64,000 nucleotides of DNA from Planctomycetota bacterium (lineage in GTDB: Bacteria; Planctomycetota; UBA11346): assembly GCA_028280785.1 (NCBI GenBank), contig JANQLF010000122.1, forward strand, positions 23,627 through 87,626. Direction: 5' to 3'. The notes below the pieces were generated by a model that was not told the DNA's origin, made no database searches, and saw only the letters and a program-made list of their open reading frames with translations. The translations under genes and the position numbers were made by a program. Below are positions 5,991-48,500 of this stretch, in pieces (positions within the stretch are counted from its first letter, which is position 1; the number at the start of each line of letters is the position of its first letter).

Positions 5991-8900
5991 TTATTTTTGT
6001 GATAATGTAGCGATGCGATATTTCACATAACGTGAAATAGTGGCGCTATGTGTTTTTTTGTAGGGAGGCAATACTAGAAATTCTTGGTAGAGTTCTAACG
6101 CATGTTGCGCACGACCACGGAGGTCATAGTTAACAGCTTGATAAAGCAAATAATCCTGATCGATTGTTGTCTGTGTTGGTTGCTTCATGAAATAATCTTT
6201 ATCTATACTGCCAGTGGCCAATTTACTACAATACCAAGGGCGTAAGCCTTGATACCATTTTCTGTTTTCCTGAAGTTCACGCATGGCCTTTTTAAATACA
6301 TCCTCATTACCGTTGAAGTGCTCAAGTATGGGATAGAGGAAAAAATATTCAAAATTCGGTTGCCTTGCACGTAGCATATAACCGGGTGTGTTATCAATAT
6401 ATTCACGCATATCTGCTAAGGAACTTTTGTCGCCCTGGATATAGCGTTTTAAAGCGAGTGACATGCGGGCGTCAAAACGATAATCCGGTGTAAATTCACG
6501 GTGATTCTCTTGGGCAATTAAAAACCCTTCTTCGTTTTCAAGGTAGAGTTGAACAAGTGTCCATAAAAGGTCACCTTCTTCAGACATATCTTCAATAGCT
6601 TTAAAGTTATTTTCCCCAAAGAGAATAATATTATCATACAAATCTGATTCTTTACCAAATAGTTTTTTGGCCTCTTCGATGCGACCAAGGTTTAGTAAGG
6701 TGCCAAATTTGTCTTCAGGTTTTTTTCCGTATTCATCAAGCCATTTGAGTAATGCTTCGTATTGGCCGGTGGCGCGAAGAGCGTTGGCATAATGACCGCT
6801 CTCTTCAGGAACTCGTTCCATTATTTCTTTATAACGGCCACATTCGCTCATCGCTCGGAGTACATAGGACTCATGTTTTGGAAACCATTCGATTGCCTTA
6901 TCGGCCCGTCCAAGAATAACTAAACTATCGTATATGTTTTTAACAAAAATATCGTTATCTGGAAAATACTTACTGCGCATGGCTAGTAGTTTATCGATCA
7001 TATCGAGATAGCCGTGATCATTAGCTTTCTTTAAAAATATAACCCATTGTAAAATAATACGTTCTCTGCTACTTTTTTTAGCAATTGCTTGCTCCATCTC
7101 TTTGATGATCTGGTATGGTTTGTCATGTCTTATTAAATACATCCATCGGTAATGATAAATATACACATCATAATAAGGATCATCAATACTATCCCATAAT
7201 TCAACGGCTTCGGCATGTTTACCCAGATGATAATTACAAAGACCTAATTTATAAAGGCTATAATTGGCTGTGTCGGTTCCGGCGTGAACGCGACTGATGC
7301 GTTCATAATGTTCAGCTGCTGTTTCAAATTGTTCATGCTGAAATAGTATATCGATAGTTTTGGTAATGTCGGTGATTTCAGGTAATTCTTTATTATAAAT
7401 TTTGATGTTGTCGAAGGCTTTATTGTCAAAATACGCATAGAGTCCTATATAACCACTGTCGATAGGTGTAATTAAATCATGCGAGTTCAAAAGGACGTCA
7501 TCAACGTAAAGACGCAGACGCTTACCGTCAATTTCTGCGCGAATTTTATATTTCTGACCGTTTTCGATGGTAAACTCAGAATAATTAAGGCGGCCGACGG
7601 GCCCATCAATCATGGTGCAGGTATTACTCAGGGCACCAAGTTGTAAATAATAGGCATTGGTGGGTGCTTGTGATTTTCCTTCTTGATTAAATTCCTTAAG
7701 GTCCGGTACATGGATAATTGACAAATCACCTGGCTTAGAGTCTGGCAGGCTTTCACCTTCAAATTCGATGGCAACGCTACCTTTAATTTTATGCTTATAG
7801 AGCCAAGTGAATTCTGGCCCTTTCTTGGCAATCAAACGACCATCTTCAATGGCAAAGGCATCGGAACGATCTTTGCGAAACAGCCAGTCGTCCTTCCAAT
7901 TTTTATCATCATTAAATGACGTTTCAAAGATTGGGTCACCCCATCCAGCAATTTGTCGCTGTTGATTTTTATAGACTCCATAGACAGCGGCAGCAATAAA
8001 GATCAAGAGTACCGCTACCCAGACAAAATGTTTTGATGATTTCTTGAGATGATAGCGGAAATACTCGCGCAGGCTGTATTGATAGGTATCAACCATGCCT
8101 CCACTTTGATATATTCTCAATTCACTGATGAGCGATTGAATATCTGGATAACGATCCTGTGGTTTTGCCGCCATACATTTTTTACAAATGGCGAGTAAGG
8201 GCTTAGGAATTGTTTTAGATTCTCCAAGATTCAATATACCTTTGCGTTTATGCTCCCAAAACATTTCCACGTTTTTACTGCTATATGGAAATTGACCGGA
8301 TAAGACATGATAAAAAGTAGTGCCTAAACAATAGATATCACTGCTTTTTGTTGCTTGTTCTTTACGCGCTTGTTCGGGGCTCATATACATTGGTGTGCCC
8401 GACATACTGCCACTTATATTTTTATCGTCACTGACATCGAGTGCGATGCCCCAGTCAACAAGATAGACTTCACCATAATCACCAACCATTACATTGTCTG
8501 GTTTAATGTCGCGATGAATAACGTTGCGCGAATGGGCATAGGCAACGGCGTCACAAACTTTTAGAAAAACGGAAAGAACCTTGGCTACATCATCTGCATT
8601 TTCGACTTCACCTTGTTTAATATATCGACTTAACGGTTTTCCGTTAATTTTTTTCATGATGTAATATATTTTATTATCTACTTGAATATCGAGGTTGTAG
8701 ACAGGAGGGATGTTGGGATGCTCGAGATAGCTGGTAATTAAAGCTTCGTGCATGAAGCGTTTAACAGTTTTGACCTTCGTTTCGTTATCTGTTGATAGGA
8801 ATTTAATAGCAACACTGCGACGCAGATTGTTGTCTTGGAGTTCATAAACAGCTCCGCTACCACCTGAACCAATCAGTTCTTTGATGTCAAAGCGTTCAGT

Positions 8901-9119
8901 ACAAGGGAACTCGTCCGTGCTATCGAGGACCAAAGTGCCATTGACCAAGATATCTTCGTAACGTGTCTCAGTGGTGGTAGTCTCGCCATCTTCAATGGTG
9001 TTGATGGCCATAACGTCAATGTTATTGCTAACAATCAGATCTGGTGTGTGCTCAGCAATAGTTTGCGCTAACTCGTTAAAGAGCTTCTCATCATCAGAAT
9101 CGTCAAGATCTTGCGTCAT
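5991..9119 (-). CDS. Hanks-type Ser/Thr protein kinase with TM helix and large TPR-containing ectodomain
   Basis: 1042 aa; GSGGSGAVY...AIK ATP-binding, HRDIKPDN catalytic loop, DWG, SGTPMYMSPE activation segment; single TM (VWVAVLLIFIAAAVYGVY); C-terminal approx 650 aa with TPR-like repeats. Confidence 0.8.
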   Translation of the reverse strand: MTQDLDDSDDEKLFNELAQTIAEHTPDLIVSNNIDVMAINTIEDGETTTTETRYEDILVNGTLVLDSTDEFPCTERFDIKELIGSGGSGAVYELQDNNLRRSVAIKFLSTDNETKVKTVKRFMHEALITSYLEHPNIPPVYNLDIQVDNKIYYIMKKINGKPLSRYIKQGEVENADDVAKVLSVFLKVCDAVAYAHSRNVIHRDIKPDNVMVGDYGEVYLVDWGIALDVSDDKNISGSMSGTPMYMSPEQARKEQATKSSDIYCLGTTFYHVLSGQFPYSSKNVEMFWEHKRKGILNLGESKTIPKPLLAICKKCMAAKPQDRYPDIQSLISELRIYQSGGMVDTYQYSLREYFRYHLKKSSKHFVWVAVLLIFIAAAVYGVYKNQQRQIAGWGDPIFETSFNDDKNWKDDWLFRKDRSDAFAIEDGRLIAKKGPEFTWLYKHKIKGSVAIEFEGESLPDSKPGDLSIIHVPDLKEFNQEGKSQAPTNAYYLQLGALSNTCTMIDGPVGRLNYSEFTIENGQKYKIRAEIDGKRLRLYVDDVLLNSHDLITPIDSGYIGLYAYFDNKAFDNIKIYNKELPEITDITKTIDILFQHEQFETAAEHYERISRVHAGTDTANYSLYKLGLCNYHLGKHAEAVELWDSIDDPYYDVYIYHYRWMYLIRHDKPYQIIKEMEQAIAKKSSRERIILQWVIFLKKANDHGYLDMIDKLLAMRSKYFPDNDIFVKNIYDSLVILGRADKAIEWFPKHESYVLRAMSECGRYKEIMERVPEESGHYANALRATGQYEALLKWLDEYGKKPEDKFGTLLNLGRIEEAKKLFGKESDLYDNIILFGENNFKAIEDMSEEGDLLWTLVQLYLENEEGFLIAQENHREFTPDYRFDARMSLALKRYIQGDKSSLADMREYIDNTPGYMLRARQPNFEYFFLYPILEHFNGNEDVFKKAMRELQENRKWYQGLRPWYCSKLATGSIDKDYFMKQPTQTTIDQDYLLYQAVNYDLRGRAQHALELYQEFLVLPPYKKTHSATISRYVKYRIATLSQK

Positions 9120-12043: not shown

Positions 12044-12120
12044 GCGGGTGTAGCTCAGTTGGCTAGAGCGACAGCTTGCCATGCTGTAGGTCGTGAGTTC
12101 GAGTCTCATCACCCGCTCCA
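12044..12120 (+). tRNA. tRNA-Gly (anticodon GCC) with encoded CCA
   Basis: 77 nt cloverleaf folded by hand: acceptor stem GCGGGTG/CACCCGC, D-arm GCTC/GAGC, anticodon stem ACAGC/GCTGT with loop TTGCCAT, T-arm GTGAG/CTCAT with loop TTCGAGT, discriminator T, CCA. Confidence 0.85.
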
Positions 12121-12122
12121 AA
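12075..12122 (+). repeat. attL: 48 bp direct repeat (anticodon loop to 3' end of tRNA-Gly)
   Basis: Exact 48 bp match to 30178-30225. Confidence 0.85.
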
Positions 12123-12124
12123 CG

Positions 12125-12158
12125 AAAACCCCGTGAGGTATTAACCTTGCGGGGTTTT
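12125..12158 (+). terminator. rho-independent terminator after tRNA-Gly
   Basis: CCCCGTGAGG-loop-CCTTGCGGGG hairpin followed by TTTT. Confidence 0.6.
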
Positions 12159-12237
12159 CTCTTGCTTTAAATTATGGGCCTAAGAAACGTCAGTTGAAAC
12201 GCTGTTGAAAGGTAATTCACTTTAGGGCATCAAGCGA

Positions 12238-12789
12238 ATGGTCACACGCGATACACTCAACGAAAACAAACAAAACAGATACTTGGGAAAACAGCATACC
12301 ATATCGGATAATTTTCTGGTCACTCAAGAACACGATGACTACACATGCTGGGCAGCCTGCATTGCTATGGCAACAATTTGGCACAACGACCCGAAGACTA
12401 TAGATTCAATAGTTGAAGAATTGATGCCCGGTGTGGATAAGAAGTCACCCAAAGCCGCTGTAAATAATTTGGATTTCACATTCGCAACACAAGAAATTAA
12501 ATGCCCTAACAACACCACCTTAACATTTACTCCAATATTAAATACAACCCCAAGCATCGAAGAAATAAAAAAGGGAATTATAAATGGGCCCTACCTGCTT
12601 TGGCTGAAGAGTCAGGATCATACCTCAAATATGGGCCACATTGTATTGGGAGTCGGGGTTTGGCATGTACCAGAGACAGACAGTATACTTGCGTGGTCTG
12701 TTTTAGACCCTAACAATAATTACAATATCCTCGTCAAAAAGCCTGGAATTAATGACATCCACCAGATAAGACAAATAGTCAGGATATAA
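12238..12789 (+). CDS. papain-fold cysteine peptidase, C39-like
   Basis: 183 aa; CWAACIAMA resembles the C39 catalytic Cys block (CGAACLAM); downstream GHIVLGVG resembles the C39 His block; stop is 1 nt before TIR gene start. Confidence 0.5.
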   Translation: MVTRDTLNENKQNRYLGKQHTISDNFLVTQEHDDYTCWAACIAMATIWHNDPKTIDSIVEELMPGVDKKSPKAAVNNLDFTFATQEIKCPNNTTLTFTPILNTTPSIEEIKKGIINGPYLLWLKSQDHTSNMGHIVLGVGVWHVPETDSILAWSVLDPNNNYNILVKKPGINDIHQIRQIVRI

Positions 12790-12790
12790 A

Positions 12791-13390
12791 ATGACCGTAT
12801 TCCTAAGCCATAACAGTAAAGATAAACCAACTGTTAGATCAGTTGCCACACAACTACAGCTAATGAAAATAAACGTGTGGCTTGATGAATGGAATCTACA
12901 ACCTGGCGACATGTTAACGATGAGCATATCGGATGCATTGGATAACTGCGATACAATTTTAGTATTCTGGTCAGAGAGCGCCGCCCAAAGTAATTGGGTC
13001 AATGCCGAAATAAATTCTGCCATTACACAATCCATAACGCATGGAAAAAAAGTGATACCTATTATTCTAGACTCAACTCCGCTACCGGCCCTTCTATCTG
13101 GAATAGTTTATATTAACGGAACGAACCTAAATACACTCCCAATGAACTGTATATCTGCAATAACAGGTATTACGAAAAGAAGTGACCAACTAATGGCCAT
13201 GCAGGATGAATTGGCAAATATCGGCGATTTACATTACAATCCACTCATAGGTAATTTTTTTGTCTGCCCCAACTGCGGCGGAAATGCTAGCGACCTTCAC
13301 TCATCTAGCGCACTCGACGAAGAGCACGATAGAATGTATGGCATCGTTAAATGTAGTAATTGCGGTTATCAAGAAGTCAGCGAAATATAA
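12791..13390 (+). CDS. TIR domain protein with C-terminal zinc ribbon
   Basis: 199 aa. TIR hallmarks are FLSHNSKDK (betaA), VWLD, and SNWVNAEINSAI with Trp-x3-Glu spacing like the catalytic Glu of NADase TIRs. C-terminal CPNCGG...CSNCGY zinc ribbon. Confidence 0.7.
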   Translation: MTVFLSHNSKDKPTVRSVATQLQLMKINVWLDEWNLQPGDMLTMSISDALDNCDTILVFWSESAAQSNWVNAEINSAITQSITHGKKVIPIILDSTPLPALLSGIVYINGTNLNTLPMNCISAITGITKRSDQLMAMQDELANIGDLHYNPLIGNFFVCPNCGGNASDLHSSSALDEEHDRMYGIVKCSNCGYQEVSEI

Positions 13391-13488: not shown

Positions 13489-13800
13489 ATGACAATTACT
13501 ACCGACATTACATTTCGTGAAATAAGTGAAGATGAGTGGGAAATTTTCACAGGCGCACAATCATGGAACGATGAAGAACCTTTAATATCAGAAGGTCATC
13601 TAAATGACCATACGCCTTATTTCATGCTGCTAGATCGCAACGGTGGTTGTATTTTATTATATGACTCACAGGACCAACAGGGATGCCTGCAACTAAATCT
13701 AGAGTTTGCACACCAGGCTGAAGCCAGGGCCTTTATTTATGATAATATTCAAAGGCTCACTCTCGAATGTTTTATCAACGCTGGATTCATGGAGGTTTAA
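13489..13800 (+). CDS. hypothetical acidic protein
   Basis: 103 aa ORF between TIR gene and integrase, overlaps annotated integrase ORF start. Confidence 0.3.
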   Translation: MTITTDITFREISEDEWEIFTGAQSWNDEEPLISEGHLNDHTPYFMLLDRNGGCILLYDSQDQQGCLQLNLEFAHQAEARAFIYDNIQRLTLECFINAGFMEV

Positions 13801-14948
13801 TCATGGGGAAAATAAAAAGCCGCCATGTTCGTTACTGCTCTGTAGTAGACATCCACAAGGCCAAGAAAAAGTCTGGGAAAAAGAACTGGAATATAGGTAA
13901 GAGGTGGCTTGGGCGCGTTCAGATTATTGGCACAAAGAAGTATAGGACCAAAGCGTTTGATGAGGAAGTACAGGCTTGGGAATGGGCAGAGGACTTACTC
14001 GCTAAAATTAAAAGCGGCGCGGACCATGGCAAGAAATGCACAATTTCAGCTATCAAAGATGAATACCTTGCACACCTAAAGGGCATGAACTGCTCGCCCG
14101 GTCATATTAGTCAATGTGAAATGGTTTTAGGTCTTGCCATAAAAAATGGAATAAATGACCTACGACACGACCATATTGCATCTAAAGTTGAAACCTTCAT
14201 CCATAACCTCAAAGCACAAACCAGAAGCAAAGACGGAACGATACGGCGCAGAACAAAGTTAACATTATCTGCACGCACTAAAAATTGTTACCTCAATCAT
14301 TTGCTTGCACTGGTTTCTTTTGCTCACAAGCGCCGATATTTACCGATTGATCCACTCCACGGTATTGTGTCAAAGGTTAAGGGGCCATCAAAAATCAAAC
14401 CGACTTTTACGTTTAAAGAAATCCATCTAATACTTTCTGATCCTAATTACTCAGAGCCTATGATGATACCATTTGCATTTACCATTTATTCGGGCTTGAG
14501 AATTAGTGAGGCTATGCATGTCGAGTGGCAGGATATAGATTGGAAGGAGGGACAGATAAAGATTCGAGTGAAATCTGAATACAGACTCAAGGGTCAAAAA
14601 GAGCGCGTTGTGCTGCTACCCTTGGAATTAGCCAATTTACTACGCCCTATTGCCAAACCGCACGGGTGGATTGTTGATGATCATTTACGGACACATAAAT
14701 CCGTATGGCGGCACTACTTCATTAGACTATTGAAGAATAATGACATCGAACTTGATGGCCGCAGCCCCCATAGTGGAAGGCATACCTGGGCCTGCATATG
14801 TTCCGCTAATGGAATGGATTCTTTTGAACTGAAAACATTGGCTGGCCATGCATCACTCCAAACTACTTGGGGGTACTGTCAGAATGTTAATCATTACAGA
14901 TTTGCAATAAAAGAAAAATCTATGAGTCTGTCATCAAATGTTGGATAA
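13767..14948 (+). CDS. int: tyrosine-type site-specific integrase
   Basis: 393 aa in ORF track (probable real start ATG 13803, MGKIKSRH). C-terminal catalytic R...HSGRHTW...LAGHASLQTTWGY, which is the R-H-x-x-R-Y pattern. Confidence 0.8.
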   Translation: MFYQRWIHGGLIMGKIKSRHVRYCSVVDIHKAKKKSGKKNWNIGKRWLGRVQIIGTKKYRTKAFDEEVQAWEWAEDLLAKIKSGADHGKKCTISAIKDEYLAHLKGMNCSPGHISQCEMVLGLAIKNGINDLRHDHIASKVETFIHNLKAQTRSKDGTIRRRTKLTLSARTKNCYLNHLLALVSFAHKRRYLPIDPLHGIVSKVKGPSKIKPTFTFKEIHLILSDPNYSEPMMIPFAFTIYSGLRISEAMHVEWQDIDWKEGQIKIRVKSEYRLKGQKERVVLLPLELANLLRPIAKPHGWIVDDHLRTHKSVWRHYFIRLLKNNDIELDGRSPHSGRHTWACICSANGMDSFELKTLAGHASLQTTWGYCQNVNHYRFAIKEKSMSLSSNVG

Positions 14949-14955
14949 ATAACAC

Positions 14956-17688
14956 TTAATCAAACTCCATCTTATCGCCATCAGGCTTCGAAGAATATCT
15001 CCAGCCACGTTGCGCAAACGCCTCCTTACCACCCTCTAGCTTAAGAAGAGACTCTCTATTCTCTATATTCTCAATAGCAAATTGTTGCACATTCGTAATG
15101 CCGTTCTCCAGAGAATTTAGAGAAATAACGAGGTCAGCGTCGCCATTTATTACAAAATTAGCATTATGCGTTGCAAATATTATCTGCCTCCGCGATTTTT
15201 GTCGTTTTATTAGGTCAGTCAAATACTCTGCAATTAACGCACTGTCCAGATGTGCCTCCGGCTCATCTATAATCAATGGGTGATTGCCAATACTTAACAA
15301 AATAACTAAAACTGCAGTGCATCTTTGACCAAATGAACAAGTTTCGATTGGTTTGTCTCCATACTCTATATTAACAGATCTGATGCTCTTTATTGAGCAG
15401 AGGCGCTTCATGTACATCAATCTTAAAATTTGAATATTATTTGAGTCTCTCAGGTATTCCTTTAATAAATTAACCGTCTTACCTTCGGGTATTCCATCAA
15501 ATAACGCATCAAATACATCATCATCACTTCCCTCAGCCCATATCTTACCATTTAATTGTTCAATACAGCGCCGCACTTTGTCTGCCCTTAAATTACTCTC
15601 TTCGTACTGTTGGTTCATCAAATCAATCAACTCTGATGCAAGACTCGAATGAGCATAGCCAAAAAGCAAACCGGGCTTAATTACTATTGACTTTACATGG
15701 GGAGACGTCGCTTTTAACAGATCGTTCAAGTCGTCAATTATCGGAATAGAATGCTCCATATAACTCGATAACAATTGATCTGGGGGAGGATTATTATCGA
15801 TATACTCTTTATGTTCCGAAATTTCTTCATTGATATTCGCCAGAGACTGCTTCAGCTCAAGAATATCTTCATTGGCCTTGTTCAAATCAAGTGCATTCTG
15901 GGGCTCCACTCCCTTTTCTGCCAAAAACACTTCTAACTTCTCCCTCTCAGTTGCAATGTCTGCCTCGACACTCAAAGACTTTTTCTGCAAATCTGCAAGG
16001 ATTCGTGTAGTAGGTGATGATTTCCTTATTTCACCATATTGAACTATAACCCCGTCCAACCATTCTTTAGCATCTTCATCTTTTGGTTTTTTAATGCTCT
16101 CTAATGAATGAATTGCCTCAGCTAAAATTGATTCGGCGTTTTCTATGATAGCAATGTCTGACTTATATTCGGACAGCGTTCCTGCGAGCTCACTAATTTT
16201 ATCATTAATCTCCTTATGGGCTGGATCATTCAATGAAGATACAATGCGCTCTAAAGAACCGATTCTTTTTTCTACATTGGCTCTTTCTTTAATTAGACTC
16301 GCGTATTTTCGCATTGAACCCACTAAACTGTCGATCGTATCCCCATTAGCCTCGGCCTCATTGATTATTCCCATCAGCTTATTGCTTGAGTCCAACTGTG
16401 TAATTCTATTGTATATTGCACTCGACAACTCTCGCCCATTAATAGCGTAACCTTCGACCTTATCTTGGGGTAAATATTCCGCTGAATCTGGTGGCGTTCC
16501 ATCATTCAGGCTACAAAAGTCAGACGGCGAGAAAACTTGGCCATTATCATCATGCAAAACACAGCCATCCAAAAAACCAGCTGGTTTTCCCATTCCTGCA
16601 TTAATCAACTGCAACAATGTGCTTTTTCCTGATCCTCGACCTCCAACAACACATGTGTAGGACGGAGAAAATGATATTAATCCTACGCCATTAAAGCAAA
16701 AAGGATAAGTCGATTCTATCTGACCGGCCTTGGACTCAACTGATAATTCAGGGTTAGATAGCGTCAATTTATTTATTACATGTATTGGAGTCTGCGGGGC
16801 ATATTGACCAATGTGCACCCTATACTGAGGTTCATACTTAATCTGCTTTAAACCCTCGAATGTTAATTCAGACTTGATCCAACACTTTCGATCCTTATGT
16901 GGACAAAAAACTTTTTCTAAGTTGTGGGCATCAGAGCCCTTAATGCAGGGCAGCAGCTTTCCGTATCTTTGTTTTATATATTCCTCATCTTTATCCTCGC
17001 TTAAACCCAGGAAATATTCTACATCCTTTGGCCTACCGCTGTCGATGAAATCCACAAAACCATATAAAAAGTCTCTTAATGATTGGAAGGAACCCGCGCT
17101 CAAACCTCCAAGACCATCTTTCGAATTATTGGGAATGCCAAGCAATACATTTTTACGAATTTTTGGATTATCATTAAAAAAATCCATAAGCCTAGTGTAC
17201 GAAACCTTAAACTGACTTATGCCCAGCTCATACGCTTCGTTCTCGCTCAACTCAGAAGAAGAGGCCTGTTGTCCTAGCTTAATTAAATCGTTTCGAGTAC
17301 AAAAATATTCTCCGAATTTCATACTCGGGAAAAATACTCGTTCAAAATCCTCTAAAATATCTGGATTCACCAAAATATGAAAATTAACAGGGTTCCCGTC
17401 TTCCGTCTGAATATCCAGTCGAAGCTCAAGATTGGGTAAATGAAATTCGATATCGTTTGCTCGCCCCTGATCATGAAAATTTTTGAATTTCCTGTAATTA
17501 TCAAAAGAGTAGTAGTCAGTTATTGCAATGGCCTTCACTTCTGGATAGGATTCAATTTTATCCAGATAGGCGCCCCATTTATTACCTGCATCAGATCCAG
17601 CAAACTGATCATTCAGTGCAGTATCTGGGCTGTGTATATGCAAATCCCATCTATTCCAAACAGACCCAATGCAATTTTGCTCACTCAT
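14956..17688 (-). CDS. PHP phosphoesterase fused to SMC/Rad50-like ABC ATPase with coiled-coil (Ppl-like single-gene defence candidate)
   Basis: 910 aa. N-terminal WDLHIHS PHP motif. Walker A GGRGSGKSTLLQL. Approx 300 aa coiled-coil insert. C-terminal signature-like SFGQR, Walker B IIDEPEAHLD and H-loop FATHN. Confidence 0.7.
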   Translation of the reverse strand: MSEQNCIGSVWNRWDLHIHSPDTALNDQFAGSDAGNKWGAYLDKIESYPEVKAIAITDYYSFDNYRKFKNFHDQGRANDIEFHLPNLELRLDIQTEDGNPVNFHILVNPDILEDFERVFFPSMKFGEYFCTRNDLIKLGQQASSSELSENEAYELGISQFKVSYTRLMDFFNDNPKIRKNVLLGIPNNSKDGLGGLSAGSFQSLRDFLYGFVDFIDSGRPKDVEYFLGLSEDKDEEYIKQRYGKLLPCIKGSDAHNLEKVFCPHKDRKCWIKSELTFEGLKQIKYEPQYRVHIGQYAPQTPIHVINKLTLSNPELSVESKAGQIESTYPFCFNGVGLISFSPSYTCVVGGRGSGKSTLLQLINAGMGKPAGFLDGCVLHDDNGQVFSPSDFCSLNDGTPPDSAEYLPQDKVEGYAINGRELSSAIYNRITQLDSSNKLMGIINEAEANGDTIDSLVGSMRKYASLIKERANVEKRIGSLERIVSSLNDPAHKEINDKISELAGTLSEYKSDIAIIENAESILAEAIHSLESIKKPKDEDAKEWLDGVIVQYGEIRKSSPTTRILADLQKKSLSVEADIATEREKLEVFLAEKGVEPQNALDLNKANEDILELKQSLANINEEISEHKEYIDNNPPPDQLLSSYMEHSIPIIDDLNDLLKATSPHVKSIVIKPGLLFGYAHSSLASELIDLMNQQYEESNLRADKVRRCIEQLNGKIWAEGSDDDVFDALFDGIPEGKTVNLLKEYLRDSNNIQILRLMYMKRLCSIKSIRSVNIEYGDKPIETCSFGQRCTAVLVILLSIGNHPLIIDEPEAHLDSALIAEYLTDLIKRQKSRRQIIFATHNANFVINGDADLVISLNSLENGITNVQQFAIENIENRESLLKLEGGKEAFAQRGWRYSSKPDGDKMEFD

Positions 17689-23867: not shown

Positions 23868-25037
23868 ATGCCTGACCCAAGAAAAAAAGACCCAACTCTG
23901 CCTCGTGGCGTGACCATAGAAGACCAATGGGAAAAACGACGACGACTTGGAAAGCCGGTTAACCCCGGCGTGCGGCGATACCTAGCAAAAGCCCTAATCG
24001 GTGGGACTAAATATAAATCCAAAGTGTTTGATAAACGCCGCGACGCTATCGACTGGGCTACCGCTACCGTCGCTCGTATACAAGCAGGACTCGACACAGG
24101 CAGATGCTGCCTTGTGGTAACATACTTGGATGAATATCTTTCGGAATTAAAAAGTCGCCGCCTGTCAGAAGGTTATATTAGACAAGCTGAAGACACACTC
24201 CAATTACTGCATAACAATGGCGCGAAGGACTTAAACAATCCATCATTCATACACACTGCAAAATTGATATTATATAATAAAAAAGCCCTGAAGACCAACA
24301 GAGATGGGTCTGTACGCCGCCAAACACAGTTAAAATTATCACCGTCTACAATTAACAGATACATTGCCCAGGCCAAGACATTCTCAACTTGGTGTAGTGA
24401 CAATGGATATGCAAATCGAGATGTATTAGCGCCGTTAAAGAAGCTACGTGAAGTAAAGAAAAACAAGCCCGTCCTGACTGTGTCAGAGCTCAAGCGTCTA
24501 CTAAATGACGAAAATAGTCACCATTCATTTTGGTTGATGACATGCCTGATGTGCTACCTCGGCTTACGTTGCGGTGAAGCGGCGGGCCTTCGAACTGCCG
24601 ACATTCTCTTCGAAGAAGAAATTGTTCGAGTCTGCATGCCGGATGGCCATGGGATGAAATTAAAATGGCAAAAAGAACGTCTAGTGCCTCTACAACCAGA
24701 ATTAGCTGAGATACTTCGTAAGCAAATGGATCCAAAGGCCAAATACGTGGTAAAGTCTGATAGACCACGAAAGGACAAGACCAAGTGGCGGACTGACTTC
24801 GACCAACTTCTAAGACTGGCAGGAATCACTAAGCGACCAGGGCTCAGCCCTCACAGTTGCAGACATACTTACATATCGCTTATGGTTGCCCATACAGGTG
24901 ACATGCGAAAGGTCCAAAAGAGCGTTGGCCATCAAAGCATCGTCACTACAGAAAAGTACGCTGAAAGTGCAGATGCCTACTACATATTTGTAAAAGACTG
25001 GCCCAAGGACCAGTATCTACACTTGCGCAACTTGTAG
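23868..25037 (+). CDS. int: tyrosine-type site-specific integrase (second)
   Basis: 389 aa; HSCRHTYISLM ... GHQSIVTTEKYAE, which is the H-x-x-R ... Y catalytic pattern. Confidence 0.8.
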   Translation: MPDPRKKDPTLPRGVTIEDQWEKRRRLGKPVNPGVRRYLAKALIGGTKYKSKVFDKRRDAIDWATATVARIQAGLDTGRCCLVVTYLDEYLSELKSRRLSEGYIRQAEDTLQLLHNNGAKDLNNPSFIHTAKLILYNKKALKTNRDGSVRRQTQLKLSPSTINRYIAQAKTFSTWCSDNGYANRDVLAPLKKLREVKKNKPVLTVSELKRLLNDENSHHSFWLMTCLMCYLGLRCGEAAGLRTADILFEEEIVRVCMPDGHGMKLKWQKERLVPLQPELAEILRKQMDPKAKYVVKSDRPRKDKTKWRTDFDQLLRLAGITKRPGLSPHSCRHTYISLMVAHTGDMRKVQKSVGHQSIVTTEKYAESADAYYIFVKDWPKDQYLHLRNL

Positions 25038-25049
25038 CACTGACTTGCT

Positions 25050-28000
25050 ATGACGTTAGTACAAGTGAGCACAGTAGGTTATAGCGAAGACTGGGAGGAA
25101 GGATTATCTGCACCTGTACTCCTAATCCATCTAGCTATTGCTAAGGCCTCATTGGACTTACGTCATTCAAGAGACAGAATCCCTCATGTAACATTAAGCT
25201 GCCGCCTAAGGATGTACTACATGAGCGCTCTTTCCGACCTTCTTGACGATTATCGAAACAAATCACAAACCGAGCGCGAAAAAGGCACCTATTTTGAAGA
25301 GCTGATTAGGACCTATTTCAGGTTTGAAGCGACCTATAAGGATCTATACAGCGATGTGTGGCTATACTCAGACTGGGCCAAAGAGCAGGGACTAGATCAA
25401 AGGGATACTGGAATTGACCTAGTTGCCAAAACACATGCAACAAATGAATTCCATGCCATTCAATGCAAATGCTTCGCTGAAGATTACAAAGTTCAAAAAA
25501 AGGATATTGATAGTTTTTTCACGGCTTCCGGAAAGAAGCCATTTTCACACCGGATCATAGTTACCACAACTAATCTCTGGAGTGAACACGCAGATGATTC
25601 CCTTCGGGATCAACAATTATCAGTTAATAAAATTGACCTCCACGATCTTGAGAATAGTCAAATCGACTGGGCCAAATATAAATCCGACAACAAACCTATA
25701 CTAAAGAAAAAGAAAACTCTTCGGCGACACCAAGAAACTGCGCTCTCAAACGTTGTATCTGGGCTCAATAAAGCAGACCGTGGTAAGCTGATTATGGCCT
25801 GTGGGACAGGTAAAACTTTTACCAGCTTAAAAATAGCTGAACAAATGGCCGGAAAAGGGAAAAGAGTATTGTTTCTGGTCCCGAGCTTGTCTCTACTTAG
25901 TCAAACCTTAACTGAATGGACTCAGCAATCTGAAACGCCAATGCATAATTTTGCAGTTTGTTCGGATAGTGCTGTAGGAAAAAAACGAAAGAAAGATGAT
26001 GATATAGTTCAAACTTTCATGCACGAACTTAGGTATCCAGCAACCACTGATCCCAAGCGCTTGGCTGGTGAAATGAAGAAAAGACACGATGATCAGCATA
26101 TGAGCGTTGTGTATTCAACCTATCACTCAATTGAAGTGATTAATCAAGCACAAAAAAATCATGCACTAGATGATTTTGATCTGATTATATGTGATGAGGC
26201 CCATCGAACTACAGGAGCTACATTCGAAGACGAAAGTGAAAGCAACTTCGTGAAGATTCACGATTCGGGTTTCATTAAATCCAAGAAACGTTTGTATATG
26301 ACAGCAACACCAAGAATTTATGGTGATAGTGCAAAGGCTACTGCCGAAAAAGACAATGTTGCAATATGCTCTATGGATGACGAGAAATTATACGGTAAAG
26401 AACTTCACGTAATAACATTCTCAGAATCTGTTAAACTAGGGCTGCTCACAGACTATAAAGTGATCGTCCTTTCGATTGATGAAGAACATGTTAGCTCAAG
26501 AATACAAAATTTATTAAAAGATGATAATAACCAGTTAAAGGTAGATGATGCTGCCAAAATTATTGGCTGCTGGAAAGCACTCAGCAAACAAGGGATGGAG
26601 GAGGATTTGATCCTTGATCCCAAACCAATGAAAAGGTCTGTTGCATTTTGTCAAGTTATTGACCCAAAATCTGGAAGAAGCCACAAGGTCAGCTCTAAAC
26701 AGATTTCATCAATGTTCCAAGAAGTGGTTGAAGCGTACCAAGAACAGGAAGAAGAACACAATACACTGATATGTGAGGCAAGGCATATCGACGGGAGCAT
26801 GAATGCCAGTGAAAAGACTGAAAAGATTGATTGGTTAAAATCAGAGCCAGCCGAAGACACTAGTCATATCCTCAGTAATGTCCGCTGCCTCTCCGAAGGC
26901 GTTGATATTCCAGCACTAGATGCAGTTCTTTTTCTCACACCCAGGAATTCTCAGATTGATGTTGTCCAATCAGTTGGCCGTGTAATGCGGAATGCCGATG
27001 GCAAAAACAAAGGGTATGTAATTTTACCTGTCGTAATACCAATGGGCATGACTCCCTCTGAAGCTTTGAATGACAATAAAGTATACAAGGTTGTTTGGGA
27101 GGTCTTACAAGCTCTAAGATCTCACGATGACCGCTTTGATGCAATGATAAACAAGTTGGATCTAATCGGCAAAGATACAAGCAAAATGGAAGTCATTGCA
27201 ATAACAGACAAAGTTCAACGAAAGGCAAAAAAGAAGAAAAAACAAGCTGGCAAAGGTAGCAGCACCATTGGCAGCCCAGATCTAAACAACATTCCCACAC
27301 AAATGGACATACAATTCGAAGTTGGTGAAGTGGAACGAGCGTTATATGCAAAAGTGGTTAAAAAATGCGGAAACAGAAACCACTGGGAAGATTGGGCAAA
27401 AGATATTGCTAAAATAGCAAAAACTCATATTGCTAGAATTACAACCATAATAAGGGATAAAAGCAATAAAATAGAAAGAAAGTCCTTCTTTGCGTTCGCA
27501 GAAGAACTTCGAGATGATTTAAACGATAGTATAACTGATGATGAAGTAATAGAAATGCTTTCACAGCATTTGATTACTAAACCCGTATTTGATGCGTTGT
27601 TCAAGGACTATAGTTTTGCTAATAACAACCCCGTATCTCAGGCAATGCAACAAGTATTGGATACTCTCCAAGAACATCGATTGGACAAAGAGACGGATAC
27701 CTTAGATCGTTTTTATTCAAGCGTTCAATTACGTGCAGAGGGCATTGATAGCGCCGAAGGGAAACAAAGGATAATACTTGAACTGTACGATAAATTCTTC
27801 CGTAATGCATTTCCTCGGATGACCGAACGATTAGGCATCGTCTACACACCTGTTGAGGTAGTAGACTTCATAATACACAGTGTTAATGACCTACTTAAAT
27901 CACAGTTCAAACAGACATTAAATAACCAGGGAGTGCACATTATAGATCCCTTTACCGGAACTGGAACATTTGTCACTCGATTGCTTCAAAGTGGTTTAAT

Positions 28001-30080
28001 AAAACAAGAGAACCTTAAAGAAAAATACATGAAAGAAATTCATGCAAATGAAATTGTTTTACTAGCCTATTACATAGCCGCCATAAATATTGAATCGGTT
28101 TATTATAGCATCGTTGGCGGCGAGCATAAGACCTTCAATAACATATGCCTAACAGATACTTTTCAGCTGCATGAAAAAGATGATACCATAAGCGGTTTAT
28201 TGGAAGACAATAGCGACAGAAGGATTAAGCAAAAAAAATTAGACATAAGGGTGATTATGGGCAACCCACCCTATTCAGCAATACAATCGAGCGAGAATGA
28301 TAACAACAAAAAAACTGGTTACCCAAATCTTGACGGGAGAATTCGAGATACATTCGCGCTTGGCTCAAGCGGTGTACTCAAAAATGCCTTGTATGACTCA
28401 TATGTAAGAGCAATGAGATGGGCGATAGATCGTATCGGCAATAAAGGTATTATAGGATTTGTAACTGGCAGCGCCTGGATTGACAGGACATTTGCCGATG
28501 TGATGAGAAAATGCTTGGCTGAAGAATGTACAAGCATTTACATAGTGGACCTAAGGGGCGATATTAGAAAAAATATGCTAAGTAAGGGAGCAGCAAAGCA
28601 GGGAGGCAATATATTTGGGTCAAGCAGCATGACTGGGATCGCCGTTACATTTTTTGTTAAAAACCCTTCTTCATCTAAAAAGAGCAAGATCTACTATTTA
28701 GATATTGGTGAAGATCTTAGCAGTGAGGACAAATTAAATGAGTTATTGCGCCTTAAGAGCTGCAATAATATTTCGGAATTAGGTCTTTGGTCTGAGTTGA
28801 TCCCGGATAAGTATAACGATTGGATTAATCAACGTGACGACAAGTTTGAGTCATACCCGGTCATTGGGAGCAAGAAAAAAGACTCCGGGGTGACTATTTT
28901 CAATGTATATTCGGGCGGCGTAAAAACCAATCGCGATGCATGGTGCTATAATTTCTCTCGAGAATCTGTCGCACATAATATGTCTAATATGGCCGATTTT
29001 TACAACAGTGAGATGATGAGGTACAAAAAACATTGTGAGCGCACCCCCAAGGATCGGAGGACTCCGGTTGATGAATTTATAGATAACAACCCTAAAAACA
29101 TTAGCTGGACAAGAGAATTAAAGAGAGATCTTTTGAATGGAAAAGATCGCCCCTATAATGAATCCGCTATTAGAATGGCACATTATAGACCATTTATAAA
29201 ATGCTGGATGTATTTTGATAGATACTATAACAACTGTATTTACCAGATGCCTAAATTATTCCCGAATCCAGATTCTGCCAATAAGATAATTTGTGTCTCC
29301 GGTATTGGGTCCAGGAGCGGATTTTCTGCTTTAATGGTTGATGCCGTTCCTTGCTTGGACATGATCGAAAAAGGGCAGTGTTTCCCAATTATTCAATATA
29401 AAGAAAGTGAAGAATCTACACAAACAACTTTCATAAACCAAGAAAATTCTACTGAAATTCCTGCTATCACCAGCGAGGGACTTGAGTATTTTCGTAGGAA
29501 TTTGACGGAAATTGAAGTGGATGAAAGTGATGTCTTTTACTATGTCTATGGATTACTTCACAGTAGAGACTATGTGAAAAAATTTGGGAAAAACCTCATA
29601 AAGGAACTGCCTAGAATTCCATGCCCCAAAGAATCTGATGACTTTAAAACATATTCAGTTAACGGAAAGAAACTTTCTGAATTACATCTAAACTATGAAT
29701 CAGTAGAGTGTTATCCTGCTAAAATTGAGACATCTGTTGATAGACTTAGACCCGATCATTACCTAGTCGATAAGATGAAGTTTAAAACCAAAAAAGACAA
29801 GACCATTATTGTGTACAATGAGTTTATCACAATAAATGGGATTCCTGAAAAAGCGTACGATTATCTGGTCAGCGGCAAACCCGCCATAACCTGGGTGATG
29901 GAGAGACAGTCTAAATCAGTTGACAAAAAAAGTGGAATCGTAAATGATGCGAATAATTGGGCTACTGACACAATTGGTAACCATAAGTATCCCCTAGAGT
30001 TACTTCTGCGTGTCGTCACTGTCAGCTTGCAAACACTGAACATTATTGACGATCTACCAAGCATCGAATTTATTGATTGA
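25050..30080 (+). CDS. Type ISP restriction-modification enzyme (Mrr-like nuclease + SF2 helicase + N6-adenine MTase + TRD in one polypeptide)
   Basis: 1676 aa (start may be 25212). N-terminal PD-(D/E)xK Mrr-like block (GIDLVAK...IQCK). Helicase Walker A ACGTGKTFT and DEAH box LIICDEAHRT. Gamma-class MTase GNPPYS (NPPY). Long C-terminal target-recognition region. Architecture as in LlaGI/LlaBIII. Confidence 0.8.
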   Translation: MTLVQVSTVGYSEDWEEGLSAPVLLIHLAIAKASLDLRHSRDRIPHVTLSCRLRMYYMSALSDLLDDYRNKSQTEREKGTYFEELIRTYFRFEATYKDLYSDVWLYSDWAKEQGLDQRDTGIDLVAKTHATNEFHAIQCKCFAEDYKVQKKDIDSFFTASGKKPFSHRIIVTTTNLWSEHADDSLRDQQLSVNKIDLHDLENSQIDWAKYKSDNKPILKKKKTLRRHQETALSNVVSGLNKADRGKLIMACGTGKTFTSLKIAEQMAGKGKRVLFLVPSLSLLSQTLTEWTQQSETPMHNFAVCSDSAVGKKRKKDDDIVQTFMHELRYPATTDPKRLAGEMKKRHDDQHMSVVYSTYHSIEVINQAQKNHALDDFDLIICDEAHRTTGATFEDESESNFVKIHDSGFIKSKKRLYMTATPRIYGDSAKATAEKDNVAICSMDDEKLYGKELHVITFSESVKLGLLTDYKVIVLSIDEEHVSSRIQNLLKDDNNQLKVDDAAKIIGCWKALSKQGMEEDLILDPKPMKRSVAFCQVIDPKSGRSHKVSSKQISSMFQEVVEAYQEQEEEHNTLICEARHIDGSMNASEKTEKIDWLKSEPAEDTSHILSNVRCLSEGVDIPALDAVLFLTPRNSQIDVVQSVGRVMRNADGKNKGYVILPVVIPMGMTPSEALNDNKVYKVVWEVLQALRSHDDRFDAMINKLDLIGKDTSKMEVIAITDKVQRKAKKKKKQAGKGSSTIGSPDLNNIPTQMDIQFEVGEVERALYAKVVKKCGNRNHWEDWAKDIAKIAKTHIARITTIIRDKSNKIERKSFFAFAEELRDDLNDSITDDEVIEMLSQHLITKPVFDALFKDYSFANNNPVSQAMQQVLDTLQEHRLDKETDTLDRFYSSVQLRAEGIDSAEGKQRIILELYDKFFRNAFPRMTERLGIVYTPVEVVDFIIHSVNDLLKSQFKQTLNNQGVHIIDPFTGTGTFVTRLLQSGLIKQENLKEKYMKEIHANEIVLLAYYIAAINIESVYYSIVGGEHKTFNNICLTDTFQLHEKDDTISGLLEDNSDRRIKQKKLDIRVIMGNPPYSAIQSSENDNNKKTGYPNLDGRIRDTFALGSSGVLKNALYDSYVRAMRWAIDRIGNKGIIGFVTGSAWIDRTFADVMRKCLAEECTSIYIVDLRGDIRKNMLSKGAAKQGGNIFGSSSMTGIAVTFFVKNPSSSKKSKIYYLDIGEDLSSEDKLNELLRLKSCNNISELGLWSELIPDKYNDWINQRDDKFESYPVIGSKKKDSGVTIFNVYSGGVKTNRDAWCYNFSRESVAHNMSNMADFYNSEMMRYKKHCERTPKDRRTPVDEFIDNNPKNISWTRELKRDLLNGKDRPYNESAIRMAHYRPFIKCWMYFDRYYNNCIYQMPKLFPNPDSANKIICVSGIGSRSGFSALMVDAVPCLDMIEKGQCFPIIQYKESEESTQTTFINQENSTEIPAITSEGLEYFRRNLTEIEVDESDVFYYVYGLLHSRDYVKKFGKNLIKELPRIPCPKESDDFKTYSVNGKKLSELHLNYESVECYPAKIETSVDRLRPDHYLVDKMKFKTKKDKTIIVYNEFITINGIPEKAYDYLVSGKPAITWVMERQSKSVDKKSGIVNDANNWATDTIGNHKYPLELLLRVVTVSLQTLNIIDDLPSIEFID

Positions 30081-30177: not shown

Positions 30178-30225
30178 CTTGCCATGCTGTAGGTCGTGAG
30201 TTCGAGTCTCATCACCCGCTCCAAA
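30178..30225 (+). repeat. attR: 48 bp copy of tRNA-Gly 3' part
   Basis: Exact copy of 12075-12122. Confidence 0.85.
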
Positions 30226-30226
30226 G

Positions 30227-30262
30227 AAAAAGCCCTTCGATTATTCGAAGGGCTTTTTCTTT
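30227..30262 (+). terminator. rho-independent terminator (probable original tRNA-Gly terminator)
   Basis: AGCCCTTCG-ATTAT-CGAAGGGCT perfect hairpin followed by TTTTT. Confidence 0.7.
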
Positions 30263-45523: not shown

Positions 45524-48500
45524 ATGAAGCACCGTTTCGGCTCTATATTTATTGTATTTGTAATAGCAGTAAGCTTATTATATCTGCAAAATAAAGTTTA
45601 TGTCGGCAGTCAGTATTATTTTGCTGAAGCAGTTCCAGTAAAACAAGGTGAAGAGGTTAAGTATCCATTTGTCAGTAAAGAAGGTGGGTATTTCTTACTC
45701 AAGGATATAGCCGGAAAAGCATTCGAACCGACAGCATTACAAATCGAACAATTTAAGTATTTTGCCGAACGTGGTTCTGATGGTAAGCCATTCCTGATTG
45801 ATACAGAAAATATAACCGTCAACGGGATGATGATTGAGTATAAATTTCAAAACTCATCACAAGTTAATTTACGCAGACTGAAAAAATTTGAGAAACGTCT
45901 TTTAGAGTTTTCTTTCTCTGAACCAAATAGTGAACGTGATTTATTATTCGTACCACTTGGTATTGACTTACGTGGCGGTGTTGAATTTATCTGTTCACTG
46001 TACGATGATGATCAAAATCGTGTAGAGGCTGAACAGCAAACTGTCGACATCCTACGCACTCGTTTAGAAACGCGTGGTTTATCAGAGCCACAGGTATCGC
46101 GTTTAACCAACGGTGATATTCAGGTGGTCATTCCGGGCGGCGGTAAAGCAGAAGCGGCTCGGACGCGTAAAGTATTAGAGACCACCGGTAAATTAGAATT
46201 CCGTGAAGTGCTCGAGGTCTTTGGTATTGAAGATGAAGAGGCTTTTAGCAGCCATGAACCCGGTGAACAAATTATTATCAATAAGAAGGGTAAGCCGGCT
46301 TTCAAACCAGGTGGTGGTGCTGGTTTTGATACCCTTGGTGAAAAATTATATCCACTCAAGGCTCCACGCGGTCAAACCCCATTGGCCTTCTATCGTTTGG
46401 GTCCGGCAAAAATCACTGGTCAGCATGTAGAAGATGGCTTTACCACAGCTAACGATGATGGCACGCCAGCAGTTGGTATTAAATTAAATGCAACTGGTGG
46501 TTCGATTAGTTATGAGTGGACTACCGATGTGAAAAAACGCGGTCCACTTGGTGAGAGTACGGGTGGATCTGGTCGTTTTGCAATTTGCTTAGATGGCGTG
46601 GTGTTTTCAGCACCGCGGGTACAGGAGCCAACCGGCGTTCACAGCCGCATTACTGGTCAGTTTACCACCGAAGAAGTAAACAACTTAATTTTAGTTTTAG
46701 ATACGGGTGCATTAACGGTTACCCCAGAAGTGTTATCTGAACGCGTAATTGGTGCGACCTTGGGTAAAGAAACCATCTCAAAGGGTTTGGTCGCAATGGT
46801 AACGTCATTAGCGATCATTCTTGGCTTTATTGTGATGTACTATCGCCGCCTTGGTGTGGTAGCGATGGTCAGTTTGGCAACCACCTTGGCTTTAGTGTGG
46901 ACGGCTGTTTCTGTATTTAGCATCACGATGACTTTGCCTGGCTTGGCTGGTTTGGTTTTAACGATTGGTATGGCGGTCGACGCAAATATTTTGATCTTTG
47001 AGCGTATCCGTGAGGAGATATCAGAGGATGTTGATTTACGTACCTCGTTGGATGCTGGTTATGCGCGAGCATTTTTAACAATTTTTGATGCGAATGTAAC
47101 GACCTTTTTAACAGCGTTTGTCTTGGCTTGGATTGGTACCGGTGCGATAAAAGGTTTCGGTAATACCCTTATGATCGGTATCGTTACCTCGATGTTTGGT
47201 GCGATTTATATTGGTCGGATTATTACCGACTTTTTATATCATAAAATAGACAGCACTAAAGTTAACGATTCCTTGTCGAAATTACCATTAGAGCAACCAT
47301 ATGTCAGTTGGCGTATGCCTGCCGCTATTTTATCGACATTGGTTATTATTGTCGGCATGTACACTTTTATAGCTGGTGGATCTAAGCATTTCGCGATTGA
47401 CTTTACTGGTGGTAACATGGTACAGGCAACCTTGGTGGAGCCGAAGTCTTTAGAGGAAATTCAAGACACCTTGGAAAAAGCTTACAAATCTGACCCAGAA
47501 AAATACAATCTACTCGGTGAAGATTTGCAAATTTTGCCATACTTTAGTGATTTTGAAGAGAGTGGTGAGAAGAGCCGTCAGTATGTGTTTAAGGGTCGTG
47601 ATGATCAGGCGATCATCATTAATAAAAATATGGCCGGTCAGCAAGAAGCCTTATGGAAAGTGAGTGAGAAAAAGAATACCAAACTCAACGAAGGGGTTCC
47701 GTTAACTGATCCAGCAATTAGAGAGTTGAATAAAGAAATCGCTAAATTGAAATTAGAGTTACAGCCATTTAAGGATCAATTAGCTGAGCGTATTGAAGTA
47801 TTTAAATCACAATTGGCTAGCGCTTTAGCAGGTATGATCATAGCAGAGCATTCTGAATTAGTGGCGATAAGCTTTGATGAGCAACGTATGAGCATAACGC
47901 TTACGATGTTAAGTGTTGCCGATGATACGCAAAAAGCTCAGGTCAATGATGGCATGCTTAAGCGCAATGATTTAACAGATGTTTCTATAAGCACAGATGA
48001 TGTGCGCATGACCTTTAATGCTAAATACGTTCGTGACATAGACGTTGATCCAGCAATTGGTGATAAGCAAGTGACTGCCATGAAGGAGCAAGACGCACTG
48101 TGGGCGCGTATGTATGATCAACTTGATGCAGCGACACCAGTCTCTGATCGTTATGCGCATGCGACGTTATTACGTAATTATTACGACACCTGTGTTGATC
48201 GTGCCGCATCAAGTGGTTTGCAGGTAGCGGCGGCTTATCCAGCAACTGACCATTTCTCGCCACAAGTGGCATCGCAAATGAAAAATAAAGCCTACTTAGC
48301 ATTGGGCTTTAGCATGTTGGCTATTTTATTTTATATCGCTATGCGTTTCGAATTCCGTTACGGTGTTGGTGCAATTATGGCATTGACCCATGACGTCATC
48401 GCGACGGTTGGCATTTTGGCTATGCTCGGTGTGCGCATTGATTTAACCGTTGTTGCAGCGTTATTAACCATCGTTGGTTATTCATTAAACGATACCATCG

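Follow-up and report, generated by a model that had tools for sequence, protein, structure and literature searches.

We analyzed a 64,000-nt stretch of a Planctomycetota bacterium (assembly GCA_028280785.1, contig JANQLF010000122.1, positions 23,627 to 87,626), here called the window, and within it two adjacent genes, A and B, that lie at the left edge of a genomic island inserted at a tRNA-Gly gene. Gene B encodes a TIR domain with the catalytic glutamate of the WxxxE motif and a C-terminal zinc ribbon, and gene A, directly upstream, is a true, lineage-restricted ORFan. The features of the pair are as follows.

12124..12159, + strand: terminator-like hairpin after the tRNA gene, a 16-bp stem followed by a T run.
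12238..12789, + strand: gene A, a 183-amino-acid (aa) ORFan and possible clan-CA (C39-like) cysteine peptidase, based on its open reading frame (ORF), its codon usage and weak profile matches.
12791..13165, + strand: gene B, TIR_2 domain (approximately residues 1-125) with the W69-x3-E73 motif, based on Pfam, the alignment with AbTir, AlphaFold2 (AF2) and Foldseek.
13166..13252, + strand: gene B, helical linker (approximately residues 126-154) with the family-invariant Q138, based on alignment and AF2.
13253..13390, + strand: gene B, four-cysteine zinc ribbon (C159, C162, C188, C191) and stop codon, based on Pfam/NCBIfam, alignment and AF2 strands.

The whole ORF of gene B occupies 12791-13390 on the + strand (199 aa). 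An earlier reading of this DNA from the letters alone, the sequence-only reading, had described two genes 1 nt apart next to the left attachment site (attL) of an island, and this description held. The junction reads ...ATA TAA A ATG ACC..., leaving a 1-nt gap, gene A starts 115 nt inside attL, and the island is rich in defense genes. An AGGA lies 8 nt 5' of the gene B ATG, within the 3' end of gene A. On window codon usage, the annotated frame of gene A was the best of the six (-0.07 versus -0.35 bits/codon or worse), and since its score is level with those of gene B and of the neighboring integrase, gene A looks like a real gene rather than a chance ORF. To judge from this arrangement, A and B are probably cotranscribed and possibly translationally coupled. 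The terminator-like hairpin at 12124-12159 means that the two genes need a promoter of their own within 12160-12237, inside the island; no promoter was recognized in this 78-nt leader, and gene A has no clear ribosome-binding site. We also observed a 26-nt inverted repeat (85% complementary) with one arm in gene B (13204-13229) and the other in integrase 1 (14328-14353), which is probably due to chance.

The N-terminal part of gene B matched Pfam TIR_2 (PF13676) over residues 3-111 at 8.1e-27 (94.6 bits against a cut-off of 28), and a phmmer search of PDB sequences returned AbTir (7uwg/8g83) at 1e-10, with W69 and E73 of gene B placed on the W..E of AbTir. In AbTir, W204 and E208 form the WxxxE motif, and the E208A substitution abolishes NADase activity (10.1101/2023.05.19.541320). 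An AF2 model of gene B computed from a 30-sequence family alignment reached a mean predicted local distance difference test score (pLDDT) of 85.4 and consisted of a TIR fold, two linker helices (residues 116-125 and 130-144) and a three-stranded ribbon (169-176, 181-188 and 194-198). Foldseek comparison of this model with the PDB yielded TIR domains only, namely those of RPS4, AbTir, Cat1, SPARTA TIR-APAZ and BtpA, with E values of 1e-5 to 1e-3. These results confirm that gene B has the SxxW-x3-E arrangement with its catalytic Glu (SNWVNAE, residues 67-73) that had been read from the letters. The same applies to the zinc ribbon described downstream of the TIR domain (CPNCGG, residues 159-164; CSNCGY, residues 188-193): the C-terminal 45 residues produced several weak zinc-ribbon matches in Pfam and NCBIfam, and the four cysteines are invariant in the family.

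Among PADLOC models, gene B scored best with PDC-S66 (1.3e-15), followed by SAVED-TIR (4e-11) and TIR-NLR (6e-10), with ThsB models at 1.6e-7 or weaker; a retron reverse transcriptase (RT)-TIR model matched at 4e-17, and NCBIfam ThcB4 matched at 2e-6 with 26.7 bits against a cut-off of 220. At the sequence level, the TIR domain of gene B lies closer to TIRs of the effector type (retron RT-TIR, SAVED-TIR, TIR-NLR, AbTir and Cat1) than to the ThsB models. PADLOC returned no system for gene A, and its matches to gene B covered the TIR domain only, in agreement with the previous statement that no known TIR defense architecture fits the pair. No signal peptide or domain associated with secretion is evident in the sequence of gene B. 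Its sole Gly-Gly (residues 163-164) sits in the zinc knuckle, where the family consensus is CGA.

An initial word-indexed search with gene B retrieved almost no relatives. A tblastn search of plasmids revealed full-length relatives in Streptomyces and Arthrobacter plasmids, and a profile built from these retrieved approximately 30 clusters of 195 to 227 aa, covering 98 to 100% of gene B at 30 to 39% identity. The closest relatives, at 39% identity, are mostly actinobacterial. Invariant in the 30-sequence alignment, which comprises gene B and 29 other members, are D11, D32, G39, W60, S61, W69, E73, D94, P99, Q138, C159, C162, Y183, C188 and C191. On the strength of this alignment, gene B belongs to a coherent, unnamed family of TIR plus zinc-ribbon proteins of about 200 aa. 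A model of the full-length TIR-zinc-ribbon architecture was absent from the PADLOC, NCBIfam and Pfam libraries that we searched.

We next compared 14 independent contexts of full-length TIR-zinc-ribbon genes (177 loci were fetched overall). No co-directional gene lay within 60 nt upstream in 10 of them:

L002, Streptomyces plasmid (L007 similar): XRE regulator 217 bp upstream; convergent HEPN gene.
L003, Arthrobacter pAL1: 846 bp upstream without a convincing ORF.
L005, Kitasatospora.
L006, Streptomyces.
L089/L090: divergent upstream gene; AbiEii and Mrr fragments close by.
L091 (5001-7446): 283-bp upstream gap; CD-NTase and Cap15 (cyclic oligonucleotide-based antiphage signaling system, CBASS) and an integrase downstream.
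L092: 436-bp upstream gap.
L093: convergent GmrSD.
L176 (5001-8168, Streptomyces tricolor): divergent upstream gene; SLATT and ThsB_TIR pair (Thoeris-like) close by.
L177.

The remaining 4 of the 14 had a tight co-directional upstream gene, encoding a different protein in each:

L085/L086/L094: 300-aa unknown protein at 6 nt upstream; HD_4 gene downstream.
L087: split PDC-S25 SIR2 gene at 58 nt upstream.
L088: 324-aa unknown protein at 44 nt upstream; PDC-S60-like giant gene downstream.
L175: histidine kinase at 42 nt upstream.

Neither a peptidase nor an A-like partner was found in any of the 14 contexts, and there was no conserved partner of any sort. The four tight upstream proteins proved unrelated to one another and to gene A (all-against-all BLAST and tblastn). 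Given that no partner is conserved among the relatives of gene B, the single TIR-zinc-ribbon gene is the unit that moves between genomes. It usually lands among other defense or mobile-element genes, including CD-NTase plus Cap15, GmrSD, PDC-S25, a PDC-S60-like gene, SLATT plus ThsB, HEPN, AbiEii/Mrr and integrases. The SIR2 neighbor in L087 was considered as a ThsA and rejected, being a split PDC-S25. As a separate observation, two of the metagenomic loci (L085, 715-3267; L094, 3447-5997) share a three-gene block made up of the 300-aa unknown protein (68% identity), the TIR-zinc-ribbon protein and an HD_4 protein of RelA/SpoT type (84%), which may be a multigene form of the family specific to one sublineage.

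Gene A, in turn, found no relatives. Searches of 5.8 G clustered proteins (k-mer/HMMER) recovered only gene A itself, and phmmer against 1.84 G representatives recovered gene A plus three tandem-repeat protein artifacts only. There was no tblastn match in plasmids, phages or the 177 fetched loci, and nothing relevant in PADLOC, NCBIfam, PHROGs or PDB sequences. The sequence-only reading had called the protein a C39-like peptidase on account of a Cys block (CWAACIAMA) and a His block (GHIVLGV). Both blocks are present: the Cys block falls within QEHDDYTCWAACIAMA (residues 30-45) and GHIVLGV spans residues 133-139, followed by VLDP at 155-158, so that the candidate catalytic residues Q30, C37, H134 and D157 stand in papain order. 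The peptidase identity itself is unproven, as the profile matches are subthreshold and the His block did not align. Pfam Peptidase_C39_2 (PF13529) matched residues 28-140 with an E value of 0.014 and 16.4 bits, below the gathering cut-off of 24, PF03412 was not reported at E≤1, and the N-terminal 60-residue fragment gave a subthreshold match to Peptidase_C70 (E = 0.095). We take both the C39_2 and the C70 families to belong to the papain-like clan CA.

For comparison with classical C39 domains, we used a profile of the PDB-verified LahT150 (6mpz), ComA (3k8u) and PCAT1 (4ry2) together with CvaB; its seed was the CvaB N terminus, validated by its matches to 6mpz, 3k8u and 4ry2. In hhalign, residues 30-72 of gene A fell on the C39 Cys helix, so that C37 coincided with the catalytic Cys and Q30 lay nearby, at a marginal P value of 0.013, and with the four-sequence C39 hidden Markov model gene A was outscored by 33 of 5,000 shuffles (P of ∼0.007). 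All C39-like signals of gene A are centered at the Cys helix; when the sequences were aligned with MAFFT, unsupervised, H134 and D157 did not fall on the C39 His and Asp. A relaxed pattern of Cys block, His block and x-DP was matched by gene A only among 4,854 stop-free segments (1.05 M residues), a result that serves as a rough guide, the pattern having been drawn up post hoc. Because gene A has no homologues, no multiple alignment was possible for structure prediction; the single-sequence AF2 model reached a pLDDT of 34.9, and Foldseek matches to it were noise. On these motifs and matches, we hold the odds that gene A encodes a C39-like (papain-like) cysteine peptidase to be roughly even.

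The island that carries the pair is a mobile defense island, with the following features in addition to those given above.

12044..12120, + strand: tRNA-Gly (GCC), the integration target, its 3' part supplied by the island (ARAGORN).
12075..12122: attL, left copy of a 48-bp exact direct repeat (CTTGCC...CTCCAAA).
13489..13800, + strand: orf103 (103 aa), ending 3 nt before the integrase ATG.
13803..14948, + strand: tyrosine integrase 1, 381 aa from the ATG at 13803 (longest ORF from 13767); Pfam Phage_integrase, 3e-20.
14956-17688, - strand: 910-aa PHP-domain/ABC-type ATPase, convergent with integrase 1; PADLOC Ppl, 3.8e-37.
23868-25037: second tyrosine integrase, 32% identical to integrase 1 over 367 aa.
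25050-30080, + strand: Type ISP/IIG restriction-modification enzyme (1,676 aa) with Mrr_cat_2, helicase, ISP coupler, N6 methylase and Type_ISP_C domains, reaching up to attR.
30178..30225: attR, right copy of the 48-bp repeat and right end of the island.

The repeat consists of the last 46 nt of the tRNA-Gly gene plus two flanking bases, and no match of this kind arose in 100 shuffles. With a tRNA 3' direct repeat at both ends and a tyrosine integrase, the element has the marks of an integrated island, the length of which is set by attL and attR at 18.1 kb. Searches of Pfam, NCBIfam, PADLOC and PHROGs gave no match for the orf103 product, which might work with the integrase as an excisionase-like protein or a regulator, and the 910-aa Ppl-like ATPase is probably a single-gene defense system. 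Further cargo includes HTH repressor-like, DUF927 primase-like and AlpA-like HTH (helix-turn-helix) genes. Each of the two paralogous integrases adjoins a large defense gene. We looked for an internal att site dividing the island into two parts and found none; since there are two integrases, yet no internal att copy, the island is either composite or equipped with a spare recombinase. A metagenome scan with an integrase alignment for related islands with other cargo at the same spot returned distant integrases only.

Directly after attR we observed an inverted repeat (30223-30262) with perfect 18-bp arms and a 4-nt loop. It resembles a terminator that originally belonged to the tRNA-Gly gene and was displaced by the insertion; the island brings its own at 12124-12159. 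Just outside the island, 5991-9119 (- strand) encodes a Ser/Thr kinase of 1,042 aa that is extended by a long C-terminal region. Its kinase domain matched PADLOC PD-T4-6 models (1e-64) and NCBIfam MADS6 (5e-38), and the protein could be either a defense kinase or an ordinary Hanks kinase. In the flanking chromosome, a fused SecDF (1,091 aa; 45524-48799) and an Amuc_1101-family PilM-like protein (53174-55084) suggest a host of the Planctomycetes-Verrucomicrobia-Chlamydiae (PVC) type, or more narrowly of the Verrucomicrobia type. Residence in such an undersampled lineage could help to explain the orphan status of gene A.

We favor the explanation, to which we assign a probability of about 55%, that gene B is a self-contained single-protein sensor-effector TIR NADase. 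Its TIR domain bears every residue needed for NAD+ cleavage; we infer NADase activity. The protein would combine an enzymatic TIR of the NAD+ glycohydrolase/cyclase type, relying on E73, with a zinc ribbon joined to it via the helical linker. Ribbon and linker would act as the trigger-sensing or clustering element, a putative role for which they are the only candidates in gene B. Upon infection, the TIR domains would assemble head to tail, as in other bacterial TIR NADases, and would consume NAD+, possibly releasing a cyclic ADP-ribose (cADPR) isomer, with abortive infection as the outcome. Gene B is cargo at the attL edge of an island that also carries the Ppl-like ATPase and the Type ISP restriction enzyme, a setting consistent with the presumed role in defense. 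Gene A would be a lineage-restricted, probably cotranscribed accessory that may modulate B; since relatives of B lack an A-like gene, it is dispensable for the core function and not a conserved partner. The proposal that the two genes form a two-gene antiphage system did not hold up when co-occurrence was checked: as far as this could be tested, the pair does not recur outside this genome, with no homologue of A and no peptidase in the 14 contexts of B relatives. Several observations weigh against our explanation. The 1-nt spacing and the Shine-Dalgarno sequence of B inside A argue for joint expression, which is typical of functional partners. A partner confined to the undersampled sublineage of B would be invisible to our comparison, because the nearest relatives share no more than 39% identity with it and come mostly from actinobacteria, as opposed to an apparently PVC-type host here. 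Finally, 4 of the 14 relatives have a tightly linked upstream gene, the pattern that signals interchangeable, swapped effectors in Thoeris TIR clusters (10.64898/2025.12.03.692087).

If A were indeed a peptidase, it could sense infection and cleave B (for example, in the linker) or an inhibitor, thereby freeing the NADase, or it could restrain B. The operon-like spacing, the papain order of Q30, C37, H134 and D157 and the subthreshold C39_2, C70 and classical C39 matches that put C37 on the catalytic Cys would all fit such regulation, and pairs of a trypsin-like protease and a pro-nuclease (PMC12799240) offer a precedent in immunity. We nevertheless regard protease regulation as quite improbable: relatives of B have no protease neighbor, indicating that the family does not need processing; the His and Asp blocks of A did not align with C39, its Pfam score lies under the gathering cut-off and its fold was not predicted; and the only GG of B, located inside the zinc knuckle and replaced by GA in relatives, is an unlikely C39 cleavage site. 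The direction of signaling might instead be reversed, with B acting as a ThsB that makes an ADP-ribose-derived signal and A as a signal-activated peptidase effector, by analogy with type IV Thoeris, which provides a precedent for signaling from a TIR to a protease (10.1101/2024.10.24.620036). In Thoeris, the effector gene commonly precedes the TIR gene, as A precedes B here, gene B has weak ThsB matches (1.6e-7; ThcB4, 2e-6), and the differing tight upstream genes in 4 of the 14 contexts are reminiscent of the effector swapping just mentioned. However, 10 of the 14 contexts offer no candidate upstream effector, one of the upstream "partners" is itself a complete single-gene candidate system (PDC-S25), and the TIR of B scores higher on effector-type models than on ThsB. 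With 183 aa and a C39_2 match spanning residues 28-140, gene A leaves no room for a recognizable signal-binding domain, and it matches no PADLOC effector, NCBIfam or PHROG entry. The part of the Thoeris survey that we covered lists no peptidase or C39 effector among its 29 putative effector types (10.64898/2025.12.03.692087). A pairing of TIR and effector also does not recur, A having no homologue and the B relatives no conserved partner, and we consider a Thoeris-like pair very unlikely.

Gene B might also serve no defense function, being either the toxin of an addiction module that stabilizes the island or an inter-bacterial or host-directed NADase, with A as an unrelated or decaying ORF. 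The host-directed TIR_2 proteins AbTir and TcpB/BtpA are among the best sequence and structure matches of B, some family members (L092, L175) have housekeeping-like contexts, and gene A lacks relatives, a clear ribosome-binding site and a recognized promoter. Yet B carries no signal peptide or secretion-associated domain, the island and most neighborhoods of the relatives are rich in defense genes, and the frame of gene A has normal coding statistics, so that we see only a small chance for this explanation. It is likewise doubtful that A and B constitute a genuine immune module coupling a TIR NADase to a minimal peptidase of papain-like (C39-like) type in the cytoplasm, which would act either as a TIR-processing sensor/activator or as a signal-activated effector. 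As an established architecture, the pairing of peptidase and TIR is unsupported, being a singleton from one genome with subthreshold similarity, and our literature search turned up no paper in which a TIR is paired, in a defense role, with a papain-like or C39 peptidase. Such a module, if real, would represent a new regulatory logic outside the described Thoeris, CBASS, Pycsar and nuclease-protease systems, visible only in an undersampled PVC-type lineage.

Among known systems, type IV Thoeris shares with the A-B pair the layout of a two-gene operon encoding a TIR protein (ThsB) and a cysteine protease (ThsE). The caspase-like ThsE belongs to clan CD and not to clan CA. Gene A has no caspase match (Pfam, E≤1) and no PADLOC match, is much smaller, and is paired with a TIR in a single instance. 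In type IV Thoeris, the TIR makes N7-cADPR, which activates ThsE, the C-terminal domain of which is the proposed N7-cADPR binder; this system shows that coupling of a TIR to a protease exists in bacterial immunity (10.1101/2024.10.24.620036). With the C39 and C39_2 peptidases (LahT150, 6mpz; ComA, 3k8u; PCAT1, 4ry2; PF03412 and PF13529), gene A has in common the helix motif Q-x-C-[GW]-x-A-C-[LI]-A-M and, in the same order, a GH[IV]V[LV] strand and an x-D-P motif. It differs from them in its C-to-H spacing (97 residues versus ∼74) and in having no ABC-transporter fusion, signal peptide or evident double-glycine substrate.

For gene B, the best sequence and structure matches are AbTir and TcpB/BtpA (7uwg, 8g83 and 4lzp), with E73 corresponding to E208 of AbTir. 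These proteins are studied as host-directed effectors and have N-terminal coiled-coil or other regions, and they have neither a zinc ribbon nor a defense-island context. PDC-S66, the best PADLOC match, is like gene B a small single-gene TIR candidate, but only positions 151-240 of its 282-position profile match gene B (residues 3-91), and it has about 150 aa N-terminal to its TIR and no C-terminal zinc ribbon. The closest functional precedent is SpbK of Bacillus subtilis, a single-protein TIR NADase whose TIR domains are clustered, and thereby activated, by the portal protein of a phage, whereupon NAD+ is consumed and the infection aborts (PMC12847820). Like gene B, SpbK combines an enzymatic TIR and a small noncatalytic part in one polypeptide encoded on a mobile element, and its mechanism is the one that we propose for B. 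The two differ in that gene B has an N-terminal TIR followed by a four-Cys zinc ribbon; no sequence relationship is detectable beyond the TIR fold, and SpbK is absent from the PDB matches of B at E≤0.1. Single-protein TIR defense as such is thus already known, and the TIR with a C-terminal zinc ribbon is an undescribed variant of it, in a family that recurs in defense islands and plasmids. If gene B does act as a single-protein sensor-effector, it would be among the smallest TIR immune proteins and could serve as a model for TIR assembly triggered by a minimal sensor.

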